From the sequence record MW331437.1: 44,551 nucleotides of DNA; one strand, written 5' to 3'. This document shows, piece by piece, positions 1,914 to 39,034 of this stretch. A model generated the notes under the pieces. The model was not told where the DNA came from. It searched no databases and saw nothing but the letters and a program-made list of their open reading frames with translations. Both the position numbers and the translations under genes were made by a program. Numbering within the stretch: position 1 is the stretch's first letter; every line of letters begins with the position of its first letter. This stretch comes from Escherichia phage phiWAO78-1.

Positions 1914-3383
1914 ATGTTAATTATGAACGGTCAGAATCAGGGTGTTAAGACAAAACACCAGGAGTGGCTGCATCACTTTAATAAATGGCAGAAGGTACGA
2001 CACGCGCTGGAAGGCGACCTTATTCGTTATTTGCGCAACGTCGGAAAGAACGAACCTGACCCAACTTACGCCGCCCAGCGTCAGGAAGAATATGAGAACG
2101 GCGCTATCTGCTACAACTTCACTAAACGTACCCTGGCCGGGATGGTCGGCAGTGTCATGCGCAAAGACCCCGAGCAAATTATTCCGCGTGAACTGGAGTA
2201 CCTGTTACGTAATGCTGACGGTTCAGGCGTTGGGCTGTGGCAGCACGCGCAGGACACGCTGATGGAGATTGACTCGGTAGGCCGTGGTGGGCTGCTGGTG
2301 GACGCGCCGGAGACAGCCGCGGCAACGGCAGCCGAACAGAACGCAGGATTATTAAACCCGGTCATCGCATTCTATACCGCAGAGAACATCATCAACTGGC
2401 GGCTGACCCGCGTCGGTTCGGTTAACCGTGTGACAATGGTCGTGCTGCGTGAGGTATGGGAATATTCAGAACCGGGGGCAGAGTTCGAAACCAAGTTCGG
2501 TGAGCAATACCGCGTTCTCGATTTGATTGACGGGCGCTACCGCCAGCGCATTTACCGCTTCGACGCTGAAGGTGGTGCCCAGGATGAAGTAATCGAAATA
2601 TTCCCGGAACTCGGCGAACAGTTGCGCGGTAAAATCCCGTTCACCTTCATTGGGGCAAGCAACAACGACGCTACTATCGACGACGCCCCTTTGCTGCCGT
2701 TGGCTGAGCTTAACATCGGGCATTTCCGCAACAGTGCGGACAATGAGGAATCCAGCTTCGTTGTAGGCCAGCCAACCCTGTTTATTGCCCCGGGCGAGAA
2801 CATGAGCATGGAACAGTGGAAAGAAGCCAACCCCCACGGCGTGCGTATGGGGTCGCGCTCAGGTCATAACATTGGCTACGGCGGCAATGCGTTTCTGGTT
2901 CAGGCAGGAGAGAACAACCTAGCCAAGCAGAACATGCTGGATAAAGAGAATCAGGCCATCCAGATTGGTGCGCAGCTTATCACCCCGACGCAGCAAATCA
3001 CCGCAGAATCGGCCCGCCTGCAACGTGGTGCGGATACGTCCGTTATGGCAACAATCGCGCGTAACGTAAGCATGGCGTACACCGATGCGTTGCGCTGGGT
3101 AGCTGCGATGCTTGGATTGCGTGAAGACACAGAGATTGAATTCAAGCTGAATATGGAGTTCTTCTTGCAACCGATGACCGCGCCCGAACGAGCGCAGTGG
3201 ATGGCGGATATTAACGCTGGCCTGCTGCCTGCTACTGCTTACTACGCGGCATTGCGTAAGGCGGGGGTAACTGACTGGACTGACGAGGACATTCAGAACG
3301 CTATCGAGGACGCACCACTGCCGTTAGGTGCTGTCACTCAGGTGGCGGGGGAGATTCCGCAGTCGGCACAGCAACAGGAGTAA
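1914..3383 (+). CDS. Portal protein
   Basis: 489 aa ORF directly after TerL with AAGAGGA SD; size and position typical of portal. Confidence 0.75.
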   Translation: MLIMNGQNQGVKTKHQEWLHHFNKWQKVRHALEGDLIRYLRNVGKNEPDPTYAAQRQEEYENGAICYNFTKRTLAGMVGSVMRKDPEQIIPRELEYLLRNADGSGVGLWQHAQDTLMEIDSVGRGGLLVDAPETAAATAAEQNAGLLNPVIAFYTAENIINWRLTRVGSVNRVTMVVLREVWEYSEPGAEFETKFGEQYRVLDLIDGRYRQRIYRFDAEGGAQDEVIEIFPELGEQLRGKIPFTFIGASNNDATIDDAPLLPLAELNIGHFRNSADNEESSFVVGQPTLFIAPGENMSMEQWKEANPHGVRMGSRSGHNIGYGGNAFLVQAGENNLAKQNMLDKENQAIQIGAQLITPTQQITAESARLQRGADTSVMATIARNVSMAYTDALRWVAAMLGLREDTEIEFKLNMEFFLQPMTAPERAQWMADINAGLLPATAYYAALRKAGVTDWTDEDIQNAIEDAPLPLGAVTQVAGEIPQSAQQQE

Positions 3384-3391
3384 AATGGGAA

Positions 3392-3415
3392 AGCCCCGTT
3401 ATGGGGCTTTAACTT
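3392..3415 (+). terminator. Terminator-like hairpin after portal gene
   Basis: AGCCCC-GTTAT-GGGGCT stem-loop followed by T-containing tract; U-tract is imperfect. Confidence 0.4.
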
Positions 3416-3718
3416 TCCAGACTTCCCTGAGCGCTACGAGTTTATGATTGCCGATATCTCTCGATATTATTGAATCAGTAAAGCCATTGAACCATGACTT
3501 CATCCAGTCAGACGTTCTAAAATCGGCGTACAGAATGTGTATTGTTTGTGGGGCGTCAACGTTGTAATGTTGGCAGACATAAATGCATCCGCTGGAGATT
3601 ATAATAGCTTTGAACGTATCGTAGTCTTCTGAATCCGGGAACTCGCTAGAATCCCCGACAAGATATCTGTACGCGTATTTTTTTTATTCGTCTTTTTTCT
3701 TTTCCGCATAGTACTTTC

Positions 3719-3958
3719 TCAGAAGTGCCTGACTGGTTGTTTAAACTTCCAGTCACAATCTACATGTTTAATAGCACCTTTCGCAACAAGACTGTCTATA
3801 AATTCCGGCCCTGAATTTGTCTTGTACCATGTGTATCTGTTGCCGACTTTTACGTTTGGGAGGCTGTGGTACACAACATCACCAACCACCATAAAAGAAA
3901 CACCGATAGCCCCTTTTTCTGCATAAAGTTTTTTAGCAATACCCCTCATGTATAACAT
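3719..3958 (-). CDS. Hypothetical protein (accessory cassette A)
   Basis: 79 aa ORF on opposite strand to the flanking structural genes, second gene behind promoter element A. Confidence 0.4.
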   Translation of the reverse strand: MLYMRGIAKKLYAEKGAIGVSFMVVGDVVYHSLPNVKVGNRYTWYKTNSGPEFIDSLVAKGAIKHVDCDWKFKQPVRHF

Positions 3959-3969
3959 CTCCTGCGTAG

Positions 3970-4164
3970 TTAGTAAGGTAAGGCCTTGCGAATTGTATAC
4001 CCATATCCGAGGTAGCCGTTTTCCTCTTGCATAGCGGAGGCACGCAGCAGAGCAGCATTCTCGCCTTTTACTACAGCTACCACATAATCCGTAGAGTCTG
4101 GGCCGTTTTCTACAACTCCATACGCCTGTACGTTCTTGGTGGTAAGTTCATATGTGTTAGTCAT
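3970..4164 (-). CDS. Hypothetical protein (accessory cassette A)
   Basis: 64 aa ORF; ATG 4164 preceded by AGGAA SD and the conserved promoter element A. Confidence 0.45.
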   Translation of the reverse strand: MTNTYELTTKNVQAYGVVENGPDSTDYVVAVVKGENAALLRASAMQEENGYLGYGYTIRKALPY

Positions 4165-4195
4165 TTCTAAATTCCTTATCTCTCGTTTCGATAAC

Positions 4196-4228
4196 TGAAT
4201 AGTACCCTATTATATTGGGGTCTGCAAA
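4196..4228 (-). promoter_or_regulatory. Class-1 conserved promoter-like element, copy A (TTGCAG-N17-TACTAT with AATAG-N4-CTATT dyad)
   Basis: 33-bp element shared with copies at 6082, 15681, 37611, 39002; about 35 nt upstream of the minus-strand ATG at 4164. Confidence 0.6.
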
Positions 4229-5777: not shown

Positions 5778-5805
5778 CTGAGGCCCCGAAAGGGGCCTCA
5801 GTTTT
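5778..5805. terminator. Bidirectional rho-independent terminator (CTGAGGCCCC-GAAA-GGGGCCTCAG)
   Basis: 10-bp perfect GC-rich stem with T-runs on both strands, between convergent genes ending at 5776 and 5804. Confidence 0.75.
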
Positions 5806-6055
5806 AATACCCAGTCTCTTGGGTTAAGTTAATCTCTTTATTCCAGACGTTTCGGTCATACTTTTCACGAATCTGGCGCATACTTCTGCCGACCGCGGCG
5901 GATAGAGACGTATCCCCATCTTCTTGCGCGTCCAATTGAATCCGCCGAAGCCCAATATACGCCGAAATATCGCCGCGTAATTCGGCCTGTTCATACTCTT
6001 TTTTAAGAAAAGAACCAAGGTCCTGTACACGATGTTTTGCTGGTTTCGTAATCAT
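5804..6055 (-). CDS. Hypothetical protein (accessory cassette B)
   Basis: 83 aa ORF; ATG 6055 with GAGGAGAG SD about 25 nt downstream of conserved promoter element B. Confidence 0.45.
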   Translation of the reverse strand: MITKPAKHRVQDLGSFLKKEYEQAELRGDISAYIGLRRIQLDAQEDGDTSLSAAVGRSMRQIREKYDRNVWNKEINLTQETGY

Positions 6056-12060: not shown

Positions 12061-13229
12061 ATATGGCTACAACTCCTTTTAAGGGCGCGAATACCGCGCA
12101 ATTCTATGTGGCGGAAACTACCCCGGGCGTAACACCTACTAACCCGGTCTGGTCGCCATTGCGTAACACTGGCGGTGTTCCAGCGGTAACCCGCGATGCG
12201 CTGACTTCCAACGAACTCGACGGCAGCCGAGAAACTACATCCATCCGCACCGGTAACAAACAGGTTAGCGGGGAGTACGCCATCGAACTTAGCTCACGTA
12301 GCCAGGATGATTTCCTTGCGGGTGCTATGACTTCTACGTGGCAGGATGGGGTAGAGATTACGGGTGCCGAAATTACGGTCGCCCCAGCAGGTAAAACATT
12401 CACCCGCGCTGCCGGTAGCTTCATTACTGACGGTGTAGAAGTTGGCGACCTGATTGCGTTCACCGACTTAACCGGCGACAACGCAAAACCGTTTATCGTT
12501 ACCGCTGTTTCCGACCTTGTAGTTACGGGGGCGGGCATTCAGCACACGCTGACAGCAGAGACTGTAACCACCGACGCTAAAACTGGCGATAAACTGGAAA
12601 CCGGTAACGCGTGTAAGACGTTCTCCATCCTGACATGGTTCAAAGGCCAGTGCGGCAACCCAGACGCGTACATGTTGACCAAAGGCGTGGAAATCTCCGG
12701 TTTCACCATTGAACAGGCCGTAAACGCGATGGTGACAGGCAGCTTCCCGTTCATCGGTCTAAGTCAGGAAATTCTTTCCGAACCGCCGGCAGGTTCCGAC
12801 TTCTCTCGGGTCACATTCACTGACGAGCCGTTCTCATCTGTAGATGTGTCTGTTTTCGACGGTTCTACGCCGTTGCGTTGCGATACTCTGACCATCACCA
12901 ACGACAACAGCGCATCCGCGCAGTTCGAACTTGGCAACAGTAGCGTTGCGTTCGTGGAACGTGGCCGCGCGGCTAACACCTTCTCCATCTCCGGGAAGCT
13001 GTACGACATGGCGATGATTCAGAAGTTTATCGACGAGCAGCAGGTAGAGATTAACTCTATTCTGGCGGGGGTAAACGGGGCTATGTCTTTCAGTTTGAAA
13101 CGTGCAGAGCTTACGGCGGTTACACCAGAGATTGGCGGACCTGAGTCAATCACTCAGTCCATTGAAGGCCAGGCTACTGGCAACCAGTACCAGTCGTCTA
13201 TTGTCATCCAGCGTATCACCTACGCATAA
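12057..13229 (+). CDS. Major tail protein (putative)
   Basis: 390 aa Thr/Gly/Ala-rich ORF, last gene before a bidirectional terminator and upstream of the chaperone/tape-measure genes. Confidence 0.55.
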   Translation: MNMATTPFKGANTAQFYVAETTPGVTPTNPVWSPLRNTGGVPAVTRDALTSNELDGSRETTSIRTGNKQVSGEYAIELSSRSQDDFLAGAMTSTWQDGVEITGAEITVAPAGKTFTRAAGSFITDGVEVGDLIAFTDLTGDNAKPFIVTAVSDLVVTGAGIQHTLTAETVTTDAKTGDKLETGNACKTFSILTWFKGQCGNPDAYMLTKGVEISGFTIEQAVNAMVTGSFPFIGLSQEILSEPPAGSDFSRVTFTDEPFSSVDVSVFDGSTPLRCDTLTITNDNSASAQFELGNSSVAFVERGRAANTFSISGKLYDMAMIQKFIDEQQVEINSILAGVNGAMSFSLKRAELTAVTPEIGGPESITQSIEGQATGNQYQSSIVIQRITYA

Positions 13230-13233
13230 AACT

Positions 13234-13260
13234 AAGGCCCCTTTTGGGGCCTTTCTTCTT
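13234..13260. terminator. Bidirectional rho-independent terminator (AAGGCCCC-TTTT-GGGGCCTT)
   Basis: 8-bp stem with T-tracts on both strands between convergent genes ending at 13229 and 13259. Confidence 0.7.
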
Positions 13261-13813
13261 ACAAACCTAATTTTAAAGCAATGTCTATAACGTTCGATTT
13301 AACGTCACCCGGTATGATATATGTGTCGCAATCTTTTACACCATCAACATCATACAAGTAACCACGGCTATCCCCGTCAAACGTATAGCCGTCTCGGTGC
13401 AAGCGAACAATTCGCACTTCATGCCCAGCGGCGACGATAGGAGCCACTTCACTGGCGAACCCACCGTCGGACACTACAAAAACTTCGTCGCCGTCGGGCA
13501 AGTTTTCAGCAAGATACTTACCGAAATAATCATCGCCGAATACCGGTTTAATGAATTGTTCAGAGATAGCAATCATGAATTGACGGCGAGACAAACCATT
13601 AAGGAATCCTTCTGGCTTTTCTTTCCGCGCCCGGTCGTCGTAGCCGTCGAGAAACTCGTGGTAAGCATCCGGGCCTAACGCTGCCAGAGCGATATTGAAC
13701 ATTGGATTCTTGAAACTGGTAGTTCCTTTCGCAAAGCCCATTTCTACCAGTGCCATAGCAAGTGTGTCTTTCCCGCAACCCGCAGGGCCATTAAGAATAA
13801 TTACATTAGCCAT
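13259..13813 (-). CDS. P-loop nucleotide kinase, deoxynucleoside-monophosphate-kinase-like
   Basis: N-terminal Walker A LNGPAGCGKDT at residue 7; size and GKDT loop resemble phage dNMP kinases (T4 gp1 type). Confidence 0.55.
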   Translation of the reverse strand: MANVIILNGPAGCGKDTLAMALVEMGFAKGTTSFKNPMFNIALAALGPDAYHEFLDGYDDRARKEKPEGFLNGLSRRQFMIAISEQFIKPVFGDDYFGKYLAENLPDGDEVFVVSDGGFASEVAPIVAAGHEVRIVRLHRDGYTFDGDSRGYLYDVDGVKDCDTYIIPGDVKSNVIDIALKLGL

Positions 13814-14298
13814 TATTTATCGCTCCCATGTGATTTTAAGCGTGTAGAGTTCCCGTTACAGTCGTATTCAGTAACCGCGTGCGTCGTGATTCCTAAGCCA
13901 CGGAAATGCTTAATCACCGCTGGCGAGTCGTCGAATGCACACAAGATTCTTTCCAGTCCGATAGCGCGCAACACCTCTTCTTTAATTACGATGTCTTTTC
14001 TGTTGTCGTGTTTGCTACGCATGATTAACTGATAAAATTCGACGCGGTGGCGCTGCAGCCACATTCTGGTTTCTTTTTCTGCATCATCACTGCGACCGGT
14101 TAAAATAATAACGGCGTATCGCCGATTAAGGGCGTTACATAGTTCGATATTATCTCTAATTGGCTCATCGTCTTTGCACGCCATGTTAAATGGCCTCCAA
14201 GCCCATGTTTCGCCGTAGTTATCTTTTGGCAGCAGGTGTAAACGATGTGTACCATCTGCTAATGTCCCGTCTAAATCGAAAATTACAATATCTTTCAT
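13813..14298 (-). CDS. HAD-superfamily phosphatase/hydrolase
   Basis: N-terminal motif I IFDLDGTLADG (DxDGT nucleophile motif) typical of HAD phosphatases. Confidence 0.6.
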   Translation of the reverse strand: MKDIVIFDLDGTLADGTHRLHLLPKDNYGETWAWRPFNMACKDDEPIRDNIELCNALNRRYAVIILTGRSDDAEKETRMWLQRHRVEFYQLIMRSKHDNRKDIVIKEEVLRAIGLERILCAFDDSPAVIKHFRGLGITTHAVTEYDCNGNSTRLKSHGSDK

Positions 14299-15317
14299 CC
14301 CAGCATCTCCGGTGAAATAGTTAAACGCGCAACCTCGCCATATTTGGCGCTATAAGTAATTACATTTGCGCTACGGCCCGACATCCATCCGCCGCGGGAG
14401 GCGTAGGCGTCTTTAGCCGCTAAGGTGCGGTGTTGCTCAACAATCATGTTACGGCTTTCTACAATCTTCTGATGGTGCAGGTGACCTACGTGTGCGTAGC
14501 TGTAGACGCTCTCGCCGAACGCTTTGCGGAACTTGGCAATCATAACTGGTTCGATAGCGTCGAATCGCGCCTTGTGTCCGTGGGTAAAGAACAGCGTCGT
14601 TTTGCCGTGCTGCACCATCTTGTAAACATCCGGCGACGTATCGACGAACACACGCGGCTCATTGTCGTACAGCGTACTGAACATCTCAGCCAACCAAATC
14701 ATACCCGATTCGTCGTGGTTCCCTTGCACGATAAGCAGTCGGACGTTTTTATGTTTAACGAGCGCCATATCAACAACACGGCGTACCATACGAATCATGT
14801 AGCGGACAAGTTTCTGATAACGGGTGTCGGCGTCAAGAGCGTGACCGCTTGCAGGTGTAACGGCAACCAGACTATCGAAGTGCGCGAAGTCGCCTAGCAG
14901 GTTAATAACTCCGGTCCCAGCGTCCGGCGCTTTCTGAAACGCCTCGTCGAACCATCGGGAGAACAGGCCCTCCGCGATTTTCATATCCCAGTCGTCGCCG
15001 CTCTCGTCGGCCCAGGCCAGCATACCGAGATGGAAATCAGACACAGTGTAAAGATTGAGTAGTTTATCGTCGCGTTTGGCGCGAATGGTTTTAACAGGTG
15101 CAACGGGGGTAATCTCTGACTTCATGCCTTCAATTACGGCTTTCATCAACTCGACCTGACGTTCGGCGTCGGTTTCTGTCTTAACCCATTGCAACTTAGT
15201 ATTGCCGAGTTCGTCCACCAGAGACGACGTCCCCTTAATCTTGTAGCCGTCCGGGACAAGGTGACTAACGTCGCGACCGTGACCTACGCCTTTCTTGGCC
15301 AGCTCGCTTTCGGACAC
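14295..15317 (-). CDS. Calcineurin-like metallophosphoesterase
   Basis: Ordered motifs D-x-H (VSDFHLG), GD (LLGDFAHFD), GNH[DE] (VQGNHDE), FTHGH and GHLHH; GTG start; roughly 80-aa N-terminal extension before the first motif. Confidence 0.7.
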   Translation of the reverse strand: MSESELAKKGVGHGRDVSHLVPDGYKIKGTSSLVDELGNTKLQWVKTETDAERQVELMKAVIEGMKSEITPVAPVKTIRAKRDDKLLNLYTVSDFHLGMLAWADESGDDWDMKIAEGLFSRWFDEAFQKAPDAGTGVINLLGDFAHFDSLVAVTPASGHALDADTRYQKLVRYMIRMVRRVVDMALVKHKNVRLLIVQGNHDESGMIWLAEMFSTLYDNEPRVFVDTSPDVYKMVQHGKTTLFFTHGHKARFDAIEPVMIAKFRKAFGESVYSYAHVGHLHHQKIVESRNMIVEQHRTLAAKDAYASRGGWMSGRSANVITYSAKYGEVARLTISPEMLG

Positions 15318-15423
15318 GAATTACGCGGTCTGAGATGCCGTATTTACGGGCTATATCGATAGTTTTAACTCCGGCGTTCAATTCTTCCTGTAATTGTTCG
15401 TCGGTTATTTTCTTCTGGGCCAT
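15265..15423 (-). CDS. Small HTH-containing protein (52 aa), overlapping the 5' end of the metallophosphoesterase ORF
   Basis: ATG 15423 with GAGGAAG SD; sequence TIDIARKYGISDRVIRVRKRA looks like a helix-turn-helix; different frame from 14295-15317. Confidence 0.3.
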   Translation of the reverse strand: MAQKKITDEQLQEELNAGVKTIDIARKYGISDRVIRVRKRAGQERRRSRSRR

Positions 15424-15461
15424 GCTTACTTCCTCGTGTTTAGGATTTGTCCTATACTAGC

Positions 15462-15653
15462 TCACTTCTCGTTAACATTCGAGTTGCATGCCCAGATTAA
15501 AATAAAGACCCACGGCAGCAGAATCCAACCAAGAAACAGATTGGCCATGAATATCGCCAACTTCGCTTTATGGTTGCGGAAATACGCAACCAGGAAAGGT
15601 GCGAAATAAGCGAGCAGCGCAAATAGAATTAGGGAAACCGGTAAACTTGACAT
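15462..15653 (-). CDS. Superinfection-immunity-like small membrane protein (Imm family-like)
   Basis: 63 aa, two hydrophobic segments; motif YFRNHKAKLAIFMANLFLGWILLPW resembles the superinfection immunity protein family; first gene behind promoter element C. Confidence 0.55.
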   Translation of the reverse strand: MSSLPVSLILFALLAYFAPFLVAYFRNHKAKLAIFMANLFLGWILLPWVFILIWACNSNVNEK

Positions 15654-15680
15654 TTTAAACCCCTTCGTTGTCGGTGTAAG

Positions 15681-15713
15681 TGAATAGTACCCTATTATAT
15701 TGGGGCGCGCAAG
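15681..15713 (-). promoter_or_regulatory. Class-1 conserved promoter-like element, copy C
   Basis: CTTGCGCGCCCCAATATAATAGGGTACTATTCA on the minus strand, about 30 nt upstream of ATG 15653. Confidence 0.6.
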
Positions 15714-15819
15714 TAATGTGATAGAATAATTTTGCGCCTAGTGTCGCACACGAAAAGCGGGTGGTTCCCGTCTGGCGCAACACCATCAACCAGTAACCTC
15801 TTAACCAAAGGATTAAAGA

Positions 15820-16236
15820 ATGAAACTTTCTGATTTTTATTTCGAAGAGAAAGCACTGGTAGGCAAGAAGATGCCGATTCTGCTACCAAACGGCGAAGAC
15901 TCCGGTGAGTGGCTTAATGTTGTAGGCCCTGATGCGGATGCCGCCGTTAAAGCGGGGCGGGCTTTCATTATCGCGTACCGCCGCGGGTTGGCGCGTTTTG
16001 AAGAACTGGAAAAAGCCGCCAAAGAATCCGGCGACTATACTGAATATAACCTGGCGGTTAACGAACTGGCGGAAGACCTCAACCGACAACTCGCATCGGA
16101 AGTCGTAAACGGCTGGAGCTTTGATGAGCCTTTCTCTAAGGAAGCGCTTAACAAATTGCTGGATCAGTTCAAGGCATTGGGTACACAGGTGGCGGCGTTC
16201 CATAACGACGAGCGCAAAGCATTACAGGAAAAGTAG
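15820..16236 (+). CDS. Tail assembly chaperone (putative)
   Basis: 138 aa acidic ORF immediately upstream of the tape measure gene. Confidence 0.5.
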   Translation: MKLSDFYFEEKALVGKKMPILLPNGEDSGEWLNVVGPDADAAVKAGRAFIIAYRRGLARFEELEKAAKESGDYTEYNLAVNELAEDLNRQLASEVVNGWSFDEPFSKEALNKLLDQFKALGTQVAAFHNDERKALQEK

Positions 16237-16601
16237 ACGCGCTGTACAGGTTCGCCACCTACGAGTTTGTGGATAAGCATAAAATCAGAGAGTTTGATTC
16301 TATAGCCGACGGACACGAACAGGCGCTTATCGCGATGGGTGTAATCGATAAGAAAAAACGTGCAGCGCGACGGGGTGGGCCGGAATGCCCGCCCCTTTTT
16401 ATATCCACCTTTGAGACGTATTGCGACATTAAGTTTACGCGACACGTGCGCGAGGACGCTGTAGTATTGTTTGCAAGAGAATCCGTTACGTGGCAAGACC
16501 TGAAAGCCTATCTCGATGTTACGCAAAAACAGCTTAGCCTGTTCGAGATAGACATTATCATGGGCTTAGAAGCAATCTTTGAAGGTAGAAATCATGGCTG
16601 A
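16206..16601 (+). CDS. Tail assembly chaperone -1 frame extension (candidate programmed frameshift product)
   Basis: Frame -1 relative to 15820-16236 is open from 16206 and runs to 16601, overlapping the upstream ORF's last 10 codons; candidate slip site G-GAA-AAG at 16227-16233; no SD before the GTG at 16269. Confidence 0.4.
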   Translation, partial: RRAQSITGKVDALYRFATYEFVDKHKIREFDSIADGHEQALIAMGVIDKKKRAARRGGPECPPLFISTFETYCDIKFTRHVREDAVVLFARESVTWQDLKAYLDVTQKQLSLFEIDIIMGLEAIFEGRNHG

Positions 16602-18867
16602 TACCGCTAGCTTGATAGTACGAGTATCATCGACCGGCGTCGATAAAACCACATCACAACTGAACGGGCTTACTAAGGCGGCTGGGGCCGCTGCTGCTGC
16701 CGTCGTCAGTCTGGAAACCGCTAAGCAGGTGTTCAGTGCGCTGGTGGACTCCCAGCGCAACTTCGATAAGCTGAATTCCGGCCTCATCACGATGACCGGG
16801 AGCGCTGAGAACGCGGCTAAGGCTTTCAGCGTCCTGCAACAGTTCGCAAAAGAAACCCCATATGGTCTTAACCAGGCGGTGGAAGGCTTTACTAAGCTGG
16901 TGGCCCTCGGCCTGAACCCCAGCAAAGAGGCGTTAATCTCCTACGGCAACACCGCGGCAGCGATGGGTAAAGACCTTAATCAGATGATTGAGGCCGTGGC
17001 GGACGCCAGTACCTTTGAGTTTGAGCGACTGAAAGAGTTCGGTATTAAGTCATCACAGCAGGCGGATACAGTTTCGTTCACGTTCCGCGGTGTAACGACC
17101 ACGGTTAAGAAGAACTCCGAAGAGATTCAGAAATACCTTCTGAATATCGGTAACACTGATTTCGCCGGGGCGATGGAGACGCGCTCGAAGACATTAGATG
17201 GTCAGTTGTCGAGCCTGGCGGACTCCTTTGACGGCCTTGTACTTGCGGTGGCGCAATCAGGTTTCGGCGACGCCGTAGGCGAGCAAGCTGCGACCGCGGA
17301 AGATGCTATCACGGCGCTTACCGACGCCATCGCGTCTAATGAGATAGCCGCCACGCTCCAGGATTGGGCAACACTGTTCAATGAATCGTTCAAGTTTATT
17401 TCTGATGCCCTGAATGACCTGGCATTCGATACCGAGGACAAATCCGTTGATATGTCAGACTCGCTGGGGGCTATACCGGATGCTATTCGTGAGTGGTTGC
17501 CGGAGATTCAAAGAATAGCGAAGGATATGTATGTAGAGTTCCAGGCTATCGACATGCAAGCGGCGCTTCTGGCGCAGTCTATTAAGTCGGCCTTCACTCC
17601 GGGAGAAACAGCGGAGGGTACATTTGCCGCAGGTCAGGCCGCTATTCAGTTCTTCAAAGACACAGAAAGGGCGAAAAACAAGGCTGAGGCGGACGGGATA
17701 ACCCAACGCTCGAAGCAGCGTAAGAAAGAAATTGAGGAACAGCGCAAGCAGTACGACGAGCGCAAGAAGCAAGAAATAGACTTAGCCAGCCTTGTTAATA
17801 AAAATGGCGGAACTGGTGGGGCGGGAAATACCAACGACAAAGACGCGAAAGCCGCCGCTAAGAAAGCGGAGCAATTGCGTAAACAGGCCCAAGATTACCT
17901 CGACACTTTGGCCCGTCAGAACAACGACGAGTTAAAGGCGATTGACGCGCAGGAAAAGCAGAAACTTGCTAAGGCAAAAGAGTTCTACAGCCAGGGCGCG
18001 TTGTCTCTGAAAGAATACGAGCAAGCAAAAACGGCTATTGTCCTTGAAGCAGGGCAAAAACGCCAAGATGAACTGGATAAACGCCAGAAAGAAGCCCAGG
18101 AAAAGCAGCAGAAAGGTGACGACTTCATGGCTCAGATTATGGGCCAGAACGCTACTGAACTTGAGCTTCTAGACATCCAGGAACAGCAGAAACTGGCGGT
18201 AGCCGATAAGTACCGTGAGCAGGGTCTGATTAGCGAGAAGCAGTATCAGGCTGCGCTTAACGCCATCAACGAGCAGTACGCCACAAAGCGTGCCGACGCA
18301 ACGGCAACCGCCTTTGGTAACATGGCTTCAAACATCGGGTCTGCGTTGGGCGAGGCTTCTGGTGCGTACAAGGCATTTGCTATCGTACAGGCCACCATAG
18401 CCACGTACACCGCAGCTATTGAGGCGTACAAGTCCACAGCAGCTATCCCTGTAGTCGGTCCGTTCCTGGCTCCTGTAGCTGCCGCCGCTGCCGTTGGGGC
18501 GGGTATGGCGCAGATTTCCGCTATCAGGTCCGCCCGTGAACAGGGCGGTCAGTTATCCGCGGGGCAGGTTTCCACCATCGCCGAACGTGGTAAACCAGAA
18601 GTTATCATGCCAGCAGGCGCATCTCGCGTACGAACTGCGCAGCAGATGAAAGAAATTATGGGGCAAAACGGGTCTTCTTCTGGACCGTCTAATGTTACCA
18701 TCGTAAACAACACGAGTTCTCAAATCGGCAACGTATCCACTGAGCAGGATGATGAAGGCCGTTTGCGCATCATCATAGAAGAGCAAGTGGCGGCCTCTTT
18801 GCAGAACAGCAACAGTAAGATTAGCAAGGCTCGCAAGGCCACAAGAAACGCACCGGGGTTTAAATAA
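16594..18867 (+). CDS. Tail tape measure protein
   Basis: 758 aa from ATG 16594, Ala/Gln/Lys/Glu-rich with long helical stretches, preceded by chaperone pair. Confidence 0.8.
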   Translation: MADTASLIVRVSSTGVDKTTSQLNGLTKAAGAAAAAVVSLETAKQVFSALVDSQRNFDKLNSGLITMTGSAENAAKAFSVLQQFAKETPYGLNQAVEGFTKLVALGLNPSKEALISYGNTAAAMGKDLNQMIEAVADASTFEFERLKEFGIKSSQQADTVSFTFRGVTTTVKKNSEEIQKYLLNIGNTDFAGAMETRSKTLDGQLSSLADSFDGLVLAVAQSGFGDAVGEQAATAEDAITALTDAIASNEIAATLQDWATLFNESFKFISDALNDLAFDTEDKSVDMSDSLGAIPDAIREWLPEIQRIAKDMYVEFQAIDMQAALLAQSIKSAFTPGETAEGTFAAGQAAIQFFKDTERAKNKAEADGITQRSKQRKKEIEEQRKQYDERKKQEIDLASLVNKNGGTGGAGNTNDKDAKAAAKKAEQLRKQAQDYLDTLARQNNDELKAIDAQEKQKLAKAKEFYSQGALSLKEYEQAKTAIVLEAGQKRQDELDKRQKEAQEKQQKGDDFMAQIMGQNATELELLDIQEQQKLAVADKYREQGLISEKQYQAALNAINEQYATKRADATATAFGNMASNIGSALGEASGAYKAFAIVQATIATYTAAIEAYKSTAAIPVVGPFLAPVAAAAAVGAGMAQISAIRSAREQGGQLSAGQVSTIAERGKPEVIMPAGASRVRTAQQMKEIMGQNGSSSGPSNVTIVNNTSSQIGNVSTEQDDEGRLRIIIEEQVAASLQNSNSKISKARKATRNAPGFK

Positions 18868-24833: not shown

Positions 24834-24841
24834 ATAAAACT

Positions 24842-24867
24842 AAGGCCCCTTTCGGGGCCTTTTCTCT
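24842..24867. terminator. Bidirectional rho-independent terminator (AAGGCCCC-TTTC-GGGGCCTT)
   Basis: 8-bp stem plus T-run between the convergent late and replication modules. Confidence 0.7.
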
Positions 24868-27838: not shown

Positions 27839-28138
27839 TTAACTATAATAGTTCGCTATTAGGTCGTCAACTTGTTTAAACGATCCGACGACAAAAACAT
27901 TTGCGCCACGTTTACGCATACGCTCATGTTCTCGCAGCTGGTGCGGGTCAGGCTTCGTGTTTTCGTCTTTCTTAACCTCGACGAACCAGATGATGCCGCC
28001 GGGGAGGATTACTAGCAGGTCAGGAGCGCCGGAGCGCCCCTCGAAGGAAAGTTTACGAACGAGGCCACCAATGGCCTCGAATCGCTCTTTTGCGTATTTC
28101 TGTACGCGCCCCTCTTTAGTCATGAGCGCAGAACCCAT
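27839..28138 (-). CDS. VRR-NUC domain nuclease
   Basis: 99 aa with PD-(D/E)XK-type core (APDLLVILPGG...FVEVKKDEN...HQ) characteristic of VRR-NUC proteins. Confidence 0.65.
   Translation of the reverse strand: MGSALMTKEGRVQKYAKERFEAIGGLVRKLSFEGRSGAPDLLVILPGGIIWFVEVKKDENTKPDPHQLREHERMRKRGANVFVVGSFKQVDDLIANYYS
27842..27870 (-). promoter_or_regulatory. Class-2 promoter H: TTGACG-N17-TATAGT with AATAG-N4-CTATT dyad in the spacer
   Basis: Near-consensus sigma70 hexamers at optimal spacing, read on the minus strand; about 30 nt upstream of ATG 27808. Confidence 0.6.
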
Positions 28139-31591: not shown

Positions 31592-31620
31592 AATATAATA
31601 GCTAACTATTCAGGTGTCAA
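31592..31620 (-). promoter_or_regulatory. Class-2 promoter F: TTGACA-N17-TATATT with AATAG-N4-CTATT dyad in the spacer
   Basis: Consensus -35 and near-consensus -10 at 17-nt spacing on the minus strand upstream of 30907-31533. Confidence 0.6.
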
Positions 31621-34149: not shown

Positions 34150-34179
34150 ACTATAATAGCTAACTATTCAGGATGTCAA
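34150..34179 (-). promoter_or_regulatory. Class-2 promoter G: TTGACA-N18-TATAGT with AATAG-N4-CTATT dyad in the spacer
   Basis: Consensus -35 and near-consensus -10 on the minus strand; divergent from the XRE-type regulator gene. Confidence 0.6.
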
Positions 34180-39001: not shown

Positions 39002-39034
39002 CTTGCCACTGGGATAGAATAGGCTACTATTCAT
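39002..39034 (+). promoter_or_regulatory. Class-1 conserved promoter-like element, copy E (diverged)
   Basis: CTTGCCACTGGGATAGAATAGGCTACTATTCAT keeps TTGCC, the AATAG-N4-CTATT dyad and TACTATTCA; 27 nt upstream of ATG 39062. Confidence 0.45.

Follow-up and report, generated by a model that had tools for sequence, protein, structure and literature searches.

The 63-aa open reading frame imm, on the minus strand of the Escherichia phage phiWAO78-1 genome, is by profile comparison a genuine member of the T4 Imm family (PF14373). We consider it rather likely that its product, Imm, would act in superinfection exclusion by blocking DNA entry, probably via the tape measure protein (TMP) of the incoming phage, and we hold this specific TMP target with lower confidence than the exclusion function as a whole. 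The identification is already known, being carried by GenBank records and by papers on the Guernseyvirinae, and the annotation itself adds nothing new; we found no experiment on any Guernseyvirinae Imm homologue in the literature searched. Our analysis covers the whole stretch of 44,551 nucleotides in record MW331437.1 (the window). By sequence comparison the window belongs to the siphophage genus Kagunavirus, subfamily Guernseyvirinae: the region 13000–17000 shares 93% identity with Raoultella phage RP180 and 90–92% with K1G-type Escherichia phages, and RP180 has the same gene order across the whole window. The features discussed are listed in Table 1.

Table 1. Positions of imm and associated features in the window.
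Feature	Position	Strand	Basis
P-loop kinase-like protein	13259..13813	-	weak AAA_18 match
Polynucleotide kinase-type phosphatase (HAD_PNKP)	13813..14298	-	Pfam PF25109, 69.3 bits
Metallophosphoesterase 3' fragment, 340-aa ORF	14295..15317	-	Pfam Metallophos_2 and Metallophos, both below cut-off
Metallophosphoesterase 5' fragment, 52 aa, second operon gene	15265..15423	-	comparison with relatives
imm, 63-aa PF14373 small inner-membrane protein	15462..15653	-	ORF, Pfam, PHROG 1039, conservation, AlphaFold2
Ribosome-binding site AAGGGG of imm	15660..15665	-	6 nt before ATG, read from sequence
Class-1 repeat, candidate imm promoter and operator	15681..15712	-	repeat, spacing, conservation
TMP hydrophobic segment, presumed Imm target	18436..18525	+	hydropathy peak, TMP aa 614–645; gene 16594–18867
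Bidirectional terminator-like hairpin, end of cassette and of major tail protein gene	13234..13253	both	terminator scan

A preliminary description of this DNA gave no strand for the gene; we place its start at the ATG at 15653 on the minus strand. The product is MSSLPVSLILFALLAYFAPFLVAYFRNHKAKLAIFMANLFLGWILLPWVFILIWACNSNVNEK. It contains the motif quoted in that description and, by hydropathy, two hydrophobic stretches (residues 1–25 and 32–55), so that this part of the description is confirmed. The resemblance to the superinfection immunity family proposed there was likewise borne out by profile-HMM search: PF14373 (Imm_superinfect) matches the protein with 47.9 bits (E = 1.3e-12; Pfam gathering cut-off 27.9), residues 16–56 aligning with positions 2–42 of the 42 in the model, that is, with the whole of it, and PHROG 1039 ('immunity to superinfection') matches with E = 1.9e-22. 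T4 Imm (NP_049660) scores 58.2 bits on PF14373, so both proteins are above the cut-off of the same family, and both are small and hydrophobic membrane proteins; their pairwise BLASTP alignment is gapless over 54 aa, with 26% identity and E = 1e-9. In a 74-sequence family alignment, all 11 near-invariant columns beyond M1 are kept here, as is the invariant P19 (the residues include Y16, P19, A23, R26, H28, I34, N38, G42, W43, W48 and W54), giving the family signature YF-x-P ... A-x2-R-x-H ... I-x3-N-L-x2-GW ... W ... W. Residues R33 and W50 of T4 Imm align with R26 and W43, and both positions show conservation of 90% or more across the family. The two proteins also differ: T4 Imm has 83 residues and a hydrophilic C-terminal tail, whereas the window protein has 63 and no such tail, and the stretch that reads GWTxLGW in the family consensus is NWSIIGW in T4 Imm and GWILLPW in the window protein. 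An NCBIfam search with Imm returned nothing meaningful, and the PADLOC defence models matched neither imm nor the three downstream proteins.

The shape predicted for Imm is that of a small membrane protein, with an N-terminal hydrophobic helix and a compact hydrophobic helical core. An AlphaFold2 model (mean pLDDT 95.9) has helices at residues 4–16, 18–25, 31–41 and 45–55. The first two form a kinked N-terminal helix followed by a charged loop; in the sequence, the segment RNHKAK separates the two hydrophobic stretches, and its residues R26, H28, K29 and K31 make up the sole internal charged cluster. The two 11-residue helices that follow meet at G42–W43, with W43 in the turn. We found no relatives of Imm in the PDB by sequence profile or by fold, and no family member among the solved structures there. 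Two hydrophobic stretches in a small protein would also suit a holin- or antiholin-like protein that times lysis, and the K1B4 transcriptome paper calls the late-peaking homologue 'involved in cell lysis' (PMC12645636), a statement given there without experiment. We regard a lysis-timing role as very improbable: no holin family in Pfam matches at E ≤ 10, and RP180, the closest relative, has its holins, endolysin and spanin annotated elsewhere, which leaves imm outside the lysis module.

None of the 36 related IMG/VR loci has a disrupted imm reading frame; its length there is 58–63 aa, and the pattern of change points to purifying selection: dN/dS is 0.04–0.21 in nine of the 13 pairs listed (dS is saturated in the other four), and pN/pS summed over all pairs is 0.27. 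The sequences form three allele groups, of which Kagunavirus has two and Jerseyvirus one. Most of the divergence between groups is in the first hydrophobic stretch, and synonymous changes between them are near saturation, while RNHKAKL-IF-NL-LGW-LLPW-IWACNSNV is approximately constant across all three. The ribosome-binding site is AAGGGG, AAGGAG or GGAGGG in group A relatives. By tblastn we found imm in 373 phage records, nearly all from Guernseyvirinae, many of them with the label 'superinfection immunity protein'. The protein is identical (100%) in Kagunavirus BCH953P1 and 96.8% identical in K1ind3 and RP180. Orthologues with the same gene in the same slot, and with no difference of substance from the window protein, include UTI89UKE1_034 ('putative immunity protein'), that of SETP13 ('immunity to superinfection') and UOX38094.1 of Klebsiella phage 37P2. 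Some records, RP180 for example, leave the gene unannotated, as might be expected if it were an unexpressed frame, open by chance, in a spacer of the tail gene region. The chance that this is so is negligible: the conservation pattern already refutes it, with the frame undisrupted in 36 loci although synonymous change is saturated, and with dN/dS well below 1, and the profile match, the ribosome-binding site and the annotation in many other records point the same way. At the DNA level, neither a homologue nor a prophage copy of imm was found among 5,426 complete E. coli genomes. Low GC content as a sign of recent acquisition proved uninformative, the value for imm (44%, against 51% for the window) being merely at the 11th percentile.

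By its layout, imm opens a minus-strand operon that continues with a metallophosphoesterase gene and a variable distal part. The preliminary description had placed it first in an accessory cassette, and the junction supports this: the gap of 38 nt between imm and the metallophosphoesterase gene contains a ribosome-binding site and no terminator-like site. In relatives, the metallophosphoesterase starts 37–39 nt after the imm stop codon in Kagunavirus and 62–70 nt after it in Jerseyvirus, and is labelled either as such or as 'DNA repair exonuclease'. It is one intact coding sequence of 376–384 aa in all 34 relatives that cover the whole of it. The window copy is split by two separate 1-nt deletions (near 15317–15330), reflecting either sequencing error or recent inactivation. 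Beyond it, the phosphatase and the kinase-like protein, which relatives label as deoxynucleotide kinase or ATPase, together resemble a split polynucleotide kinase/phosphatase. This pair is present in 13 of the 36 loci, always both genes or neither, and the other 23 have other content in that space. Both imm and the metallophosphoesterase gene are present in all 36 loci. As the pair occurs in only 13, and as imm has no reverse-strand partner at this place in Klebsiella phage 37P2 (see below), we read imm as the constant occupant of a slot whose remaining content varies. The cassette ends at a GC-rich hairpin, AAGGCCCC-loop-GGGGCCTT, that occurs in three copies (13234–13253, 5781–5806 and 24835–24860), each with A/T runs on both sides; these would be bidirectional terminator-like sites at module borders.

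In all 36 loci the slot has the major tail protein gene on one side and the genes for the tail assembly chaperone and the TMP on the other. Klebsiella phage 37P2, which is more distant, has imm as its sole reverse-strand gene in the interval from the tail tube gene to that of the tail assembly chaperone, so a place beside the chaperone and tape measure genes is common to this phage, Kagunavirus and Jerseyvirus. Homologues in T4, an Erwinia myophage and a Vibrio phage sit among small genes, away from tail genes. T4 imm, an early gene, stands among early genes, whereas the window gene is inside the tail module of a siphophage, and comparison of this phage's TMP with T4 gp29 detected no similarity (E = 1.3).

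Immediately upstream of imm is a repeat, 28 nt from the ATG, which we take to be the 'class-1 element' of the preliminary description; its placement of the gene directly behind that element holds. Toward imm, the repeat offers the hexamers TTGCGC (15712..15707) and TACTAT (15689..15684), 17 nt apart, as well as an alternative −10 sequence TATAAT (15699..15694), and it contains the palindrome AATAG-N4-CTATT. There are five copies of 32–45 nt in the window, three in one orientation (at 4196, 6082 and 15681) and two in the opposite one (37624 and 39015), with the consensus TTGCrCrCCCCAAyATAATAGGrTACTATTCA as read toward imm; four of them match the 32-nt pattern with three or fewer mismatches, against an expectation of 0.00, and the fifth is looser. 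All five have a start codon with a good ribosome-binding site 24–32 nt past the TATTCA end. TTGC and TACTAT are invariant in 19 distinct Kagunavirus sequences, several of which have C as the first position of the internal TATAAT. At the same place Jerseyvirus has TTGCAT-17-TATTAT with a different spacer and the palindrome kept; the hexamers and their 17-nt spacing are thus retained across genera, and the spacer sequence is not. From the constant distance to the start codon and the retention of hexamers and spacing, we read the class-1 repeat as a candidate sigma-70-like promoter of imm with an overlapping operator. We rejected the possibility that the shared function of the repeats is to act as promoters toward the tail genes: the copy at 39015 has no gene on that side, and the distances in that direction vary where those in the imm direction are constant.

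The repeat would not be a strong promoter as judged by its hexamers. TTGCGC-17-TACTAT agrees with the consensus at 7 of 12 positions, and on sequence alone the class-1 hexamers fall short of the class-2 promoters found at other places in the genome, which contain TTGACA. A consensus scan of the imm copy picked out ATCACA-17-TATAAT (10 of 12), the conservation of which may belong to a plus-strand promoter, since this −35 hexamer is the complement of the TG in an extended −10-like sequence, TGnTAGAAT. The latter is at 15719–15727 on the plus strand and is conserved, with n variable among relatives; its Jerseyvirus counterpart is TGTTATTCT, with the same spacing. It is followed at 15734–15778, on the same strand, by a 45-nt structure of two hairpins closed by a 5-bp stem, in which three of the 14 pairs show compensatory changes between genera, and both elements precede the tail assembly chaperone and tape measure genes. 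A search of Rfam with the whole window, including this structure, gave no match.

The class-1 palindrome is also found at three strong promoter-like sites in minus-strand orientation ahead of replication genes (27844–27862, 31594–31612 and 34152–34170). These consist of TTGACA or TTGACG, a spacer of 17–18 nt, and TATAGT or TATATT, with AATAG-N4-CTATT in the spacer (with one mismatch at 27844). The common palindrome suggests that one phage regulator may bind all eight sites. Behind the copy at 4196, between the portal and head morphogenesis genes, are two minus-strand ORFs, 3970..4164 (64 aa) and 3719..3958 (79 aa), neither of which scores above any Pfam cut-off; in RP180, a single long head morphogenesis coding sequence is annotated across the equivalent of 3383–4215.

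On timing, the preliminary description had considered the position behind the class-1 element consistent with early, strong expression, a suggestion that is left unsupported rather than disproved by the weak hexamers and by a homologue that does not peak early in RNA-seq data. In the sole Kagunavirus transcriptome, of phage K1B4, the Imm homologue (gene 045) is among the genes that peak after 100 min, grouped with two genes annotated with DNA methyltransferase activity and the DNA polymerase gene, and is not among the four genes that peak within 30 min (PMC12645636). We matched gene 045 to imm by gene order and not by coordinates: it follows capsid gene 033 and precedes tail gene 050, an order that fits imm. 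Its expression is unlike that of the structural genes around it (PMC12645636). With a latent period of 30 min the time course spans several, poorly synchronous cycles, so it does not decide between early and late expression.

How Imm might act is suggested by its homology to T4 Imm, from which we infer an exclusion phenotype. According to a preprint, a fragment of the T4 tape measure protein gp29 co-purifies with T4 Imm, which binds the helical-bundle domain of gp29, and the substitutions R33A and W50A lower exclusion (bioRxiv 10.64898/2026.03.06.709160). In our reading, host RNA polymerase would most likely transcribe imm from the class-1 repeat, with the palindrome common to other phage promoters overlapping it, and the Imm made in the infected cell would most likely sit in the inner membrane and block the passage through it of DNA from phages of the same kind that arrive later. 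It would probably do so by binding the hydrophobic, channel-forming part of the incoming TMP, as reported for T4 Imm and gp29. The candidate target is the TMP's hydrophobic segment, which is the best conserved part of the protein across Kagunavirus and Jerseyvirus: its identity is 69–100% in most Kagunavirus (24–32% in one exceptional locus, L012) and 77–90% against Jerseyvirus. The TMP gene as a whole is mosaic. The first ~550 aa (the N-terminal two thirds) occur in at least two forms that are less than 50% identical and that have been exchanged among phages (loci L005–L040) independently of the flanking genes, and L012 has a different C-terminal third. We looked for co-variation between Imm and TMP and rejected it: the Imm allele groups do not follow the TMP variants, with L015, L026 and L012 breaking the correspondence. 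There is thus no sign of co-evolution, and with a mosaic TMP and allele groups that do not track it the comparison is uninformative.

The main rival to superinfection exclusion is that imm, as a true PF14373 member, has some other role at the membrane, for example guarding it from the phage's own TMP or from lysis from without. The family comprises 5060 clusters (50% identity) at E ≤ 0.001 in an exhaustive HMMER search, and its name may over-reach, since among these thousands of clusters T4 Imm is the one characterised member with a demonstrated function. Such a role would also suit the location of imm throughout the subfamily, 0.9 kb from the TMP gene and divergent from it, which is not seen in the T4, Erwinia and Vibrio phages, and the placement of the homologue among the late-peaking genes of the single RNA-seq study (PMC12645636). 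We nonetheless think another role unlikely, because the T4 exclusion residues are conserved here and we found no positive pointer to another function. During siphophage tail assembly, TMP inside the cell is bound by its chaperones. Held in this way, intracellular TMP would not reach the membrane from the periplasmic side.

Exclusion by Imm would have functional parallels among unrelated proteins. We know of no sequence relationship between Imm and gp15 of siphophage HK97, and the analogy is functional only. That protein is cited in the T4 preprint as a superinfection exclusion protein reported to act via the TMP against genome entry (bioRxiv 10.64898/2026.03.06.709160). SieA of P22 is another inner-membrane protein of phage origin that acts by blocking DNA injection (PMC10883804); unlike Imm it is a different, larger protein expressed from a prophage, and Imm has no SieA family match in Pfam. 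[quoted passage not shown] Their genes are transcribed opposite to the adjoining colicin gene, like imm relative to the TMP operon. They are small inner-membrane proteins that block insertion of the incoming pore-forming domain, an analogy taken from the T4 preprint (bioRxiv 10.64898/2026.03.06.709160). It is conceivable, though quite doubtful, that imm and the TMP operon in Guernseyvirinae form a comparable pair, arranged back to back on one control region (the class-1 repeat and TGnTAGAAT), with Imm recognising the conserved hydrophobic C-terminal part of the TMP. If they do, we would expect cross-exclusion across Kagunavirus and Jerseyvirus, and these phages would offer a simple siphophage model for the block of genome entry by the Imm family.

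Phages of both genera serve in cocktails for phage therapy and biocontrol. If the exclusion gene is active, related members of such a cocktail would interfere with one another. With binding of the TMP reported for T4 Imm, a siphophage imm located next to its presumed target would be a convenient second test case.
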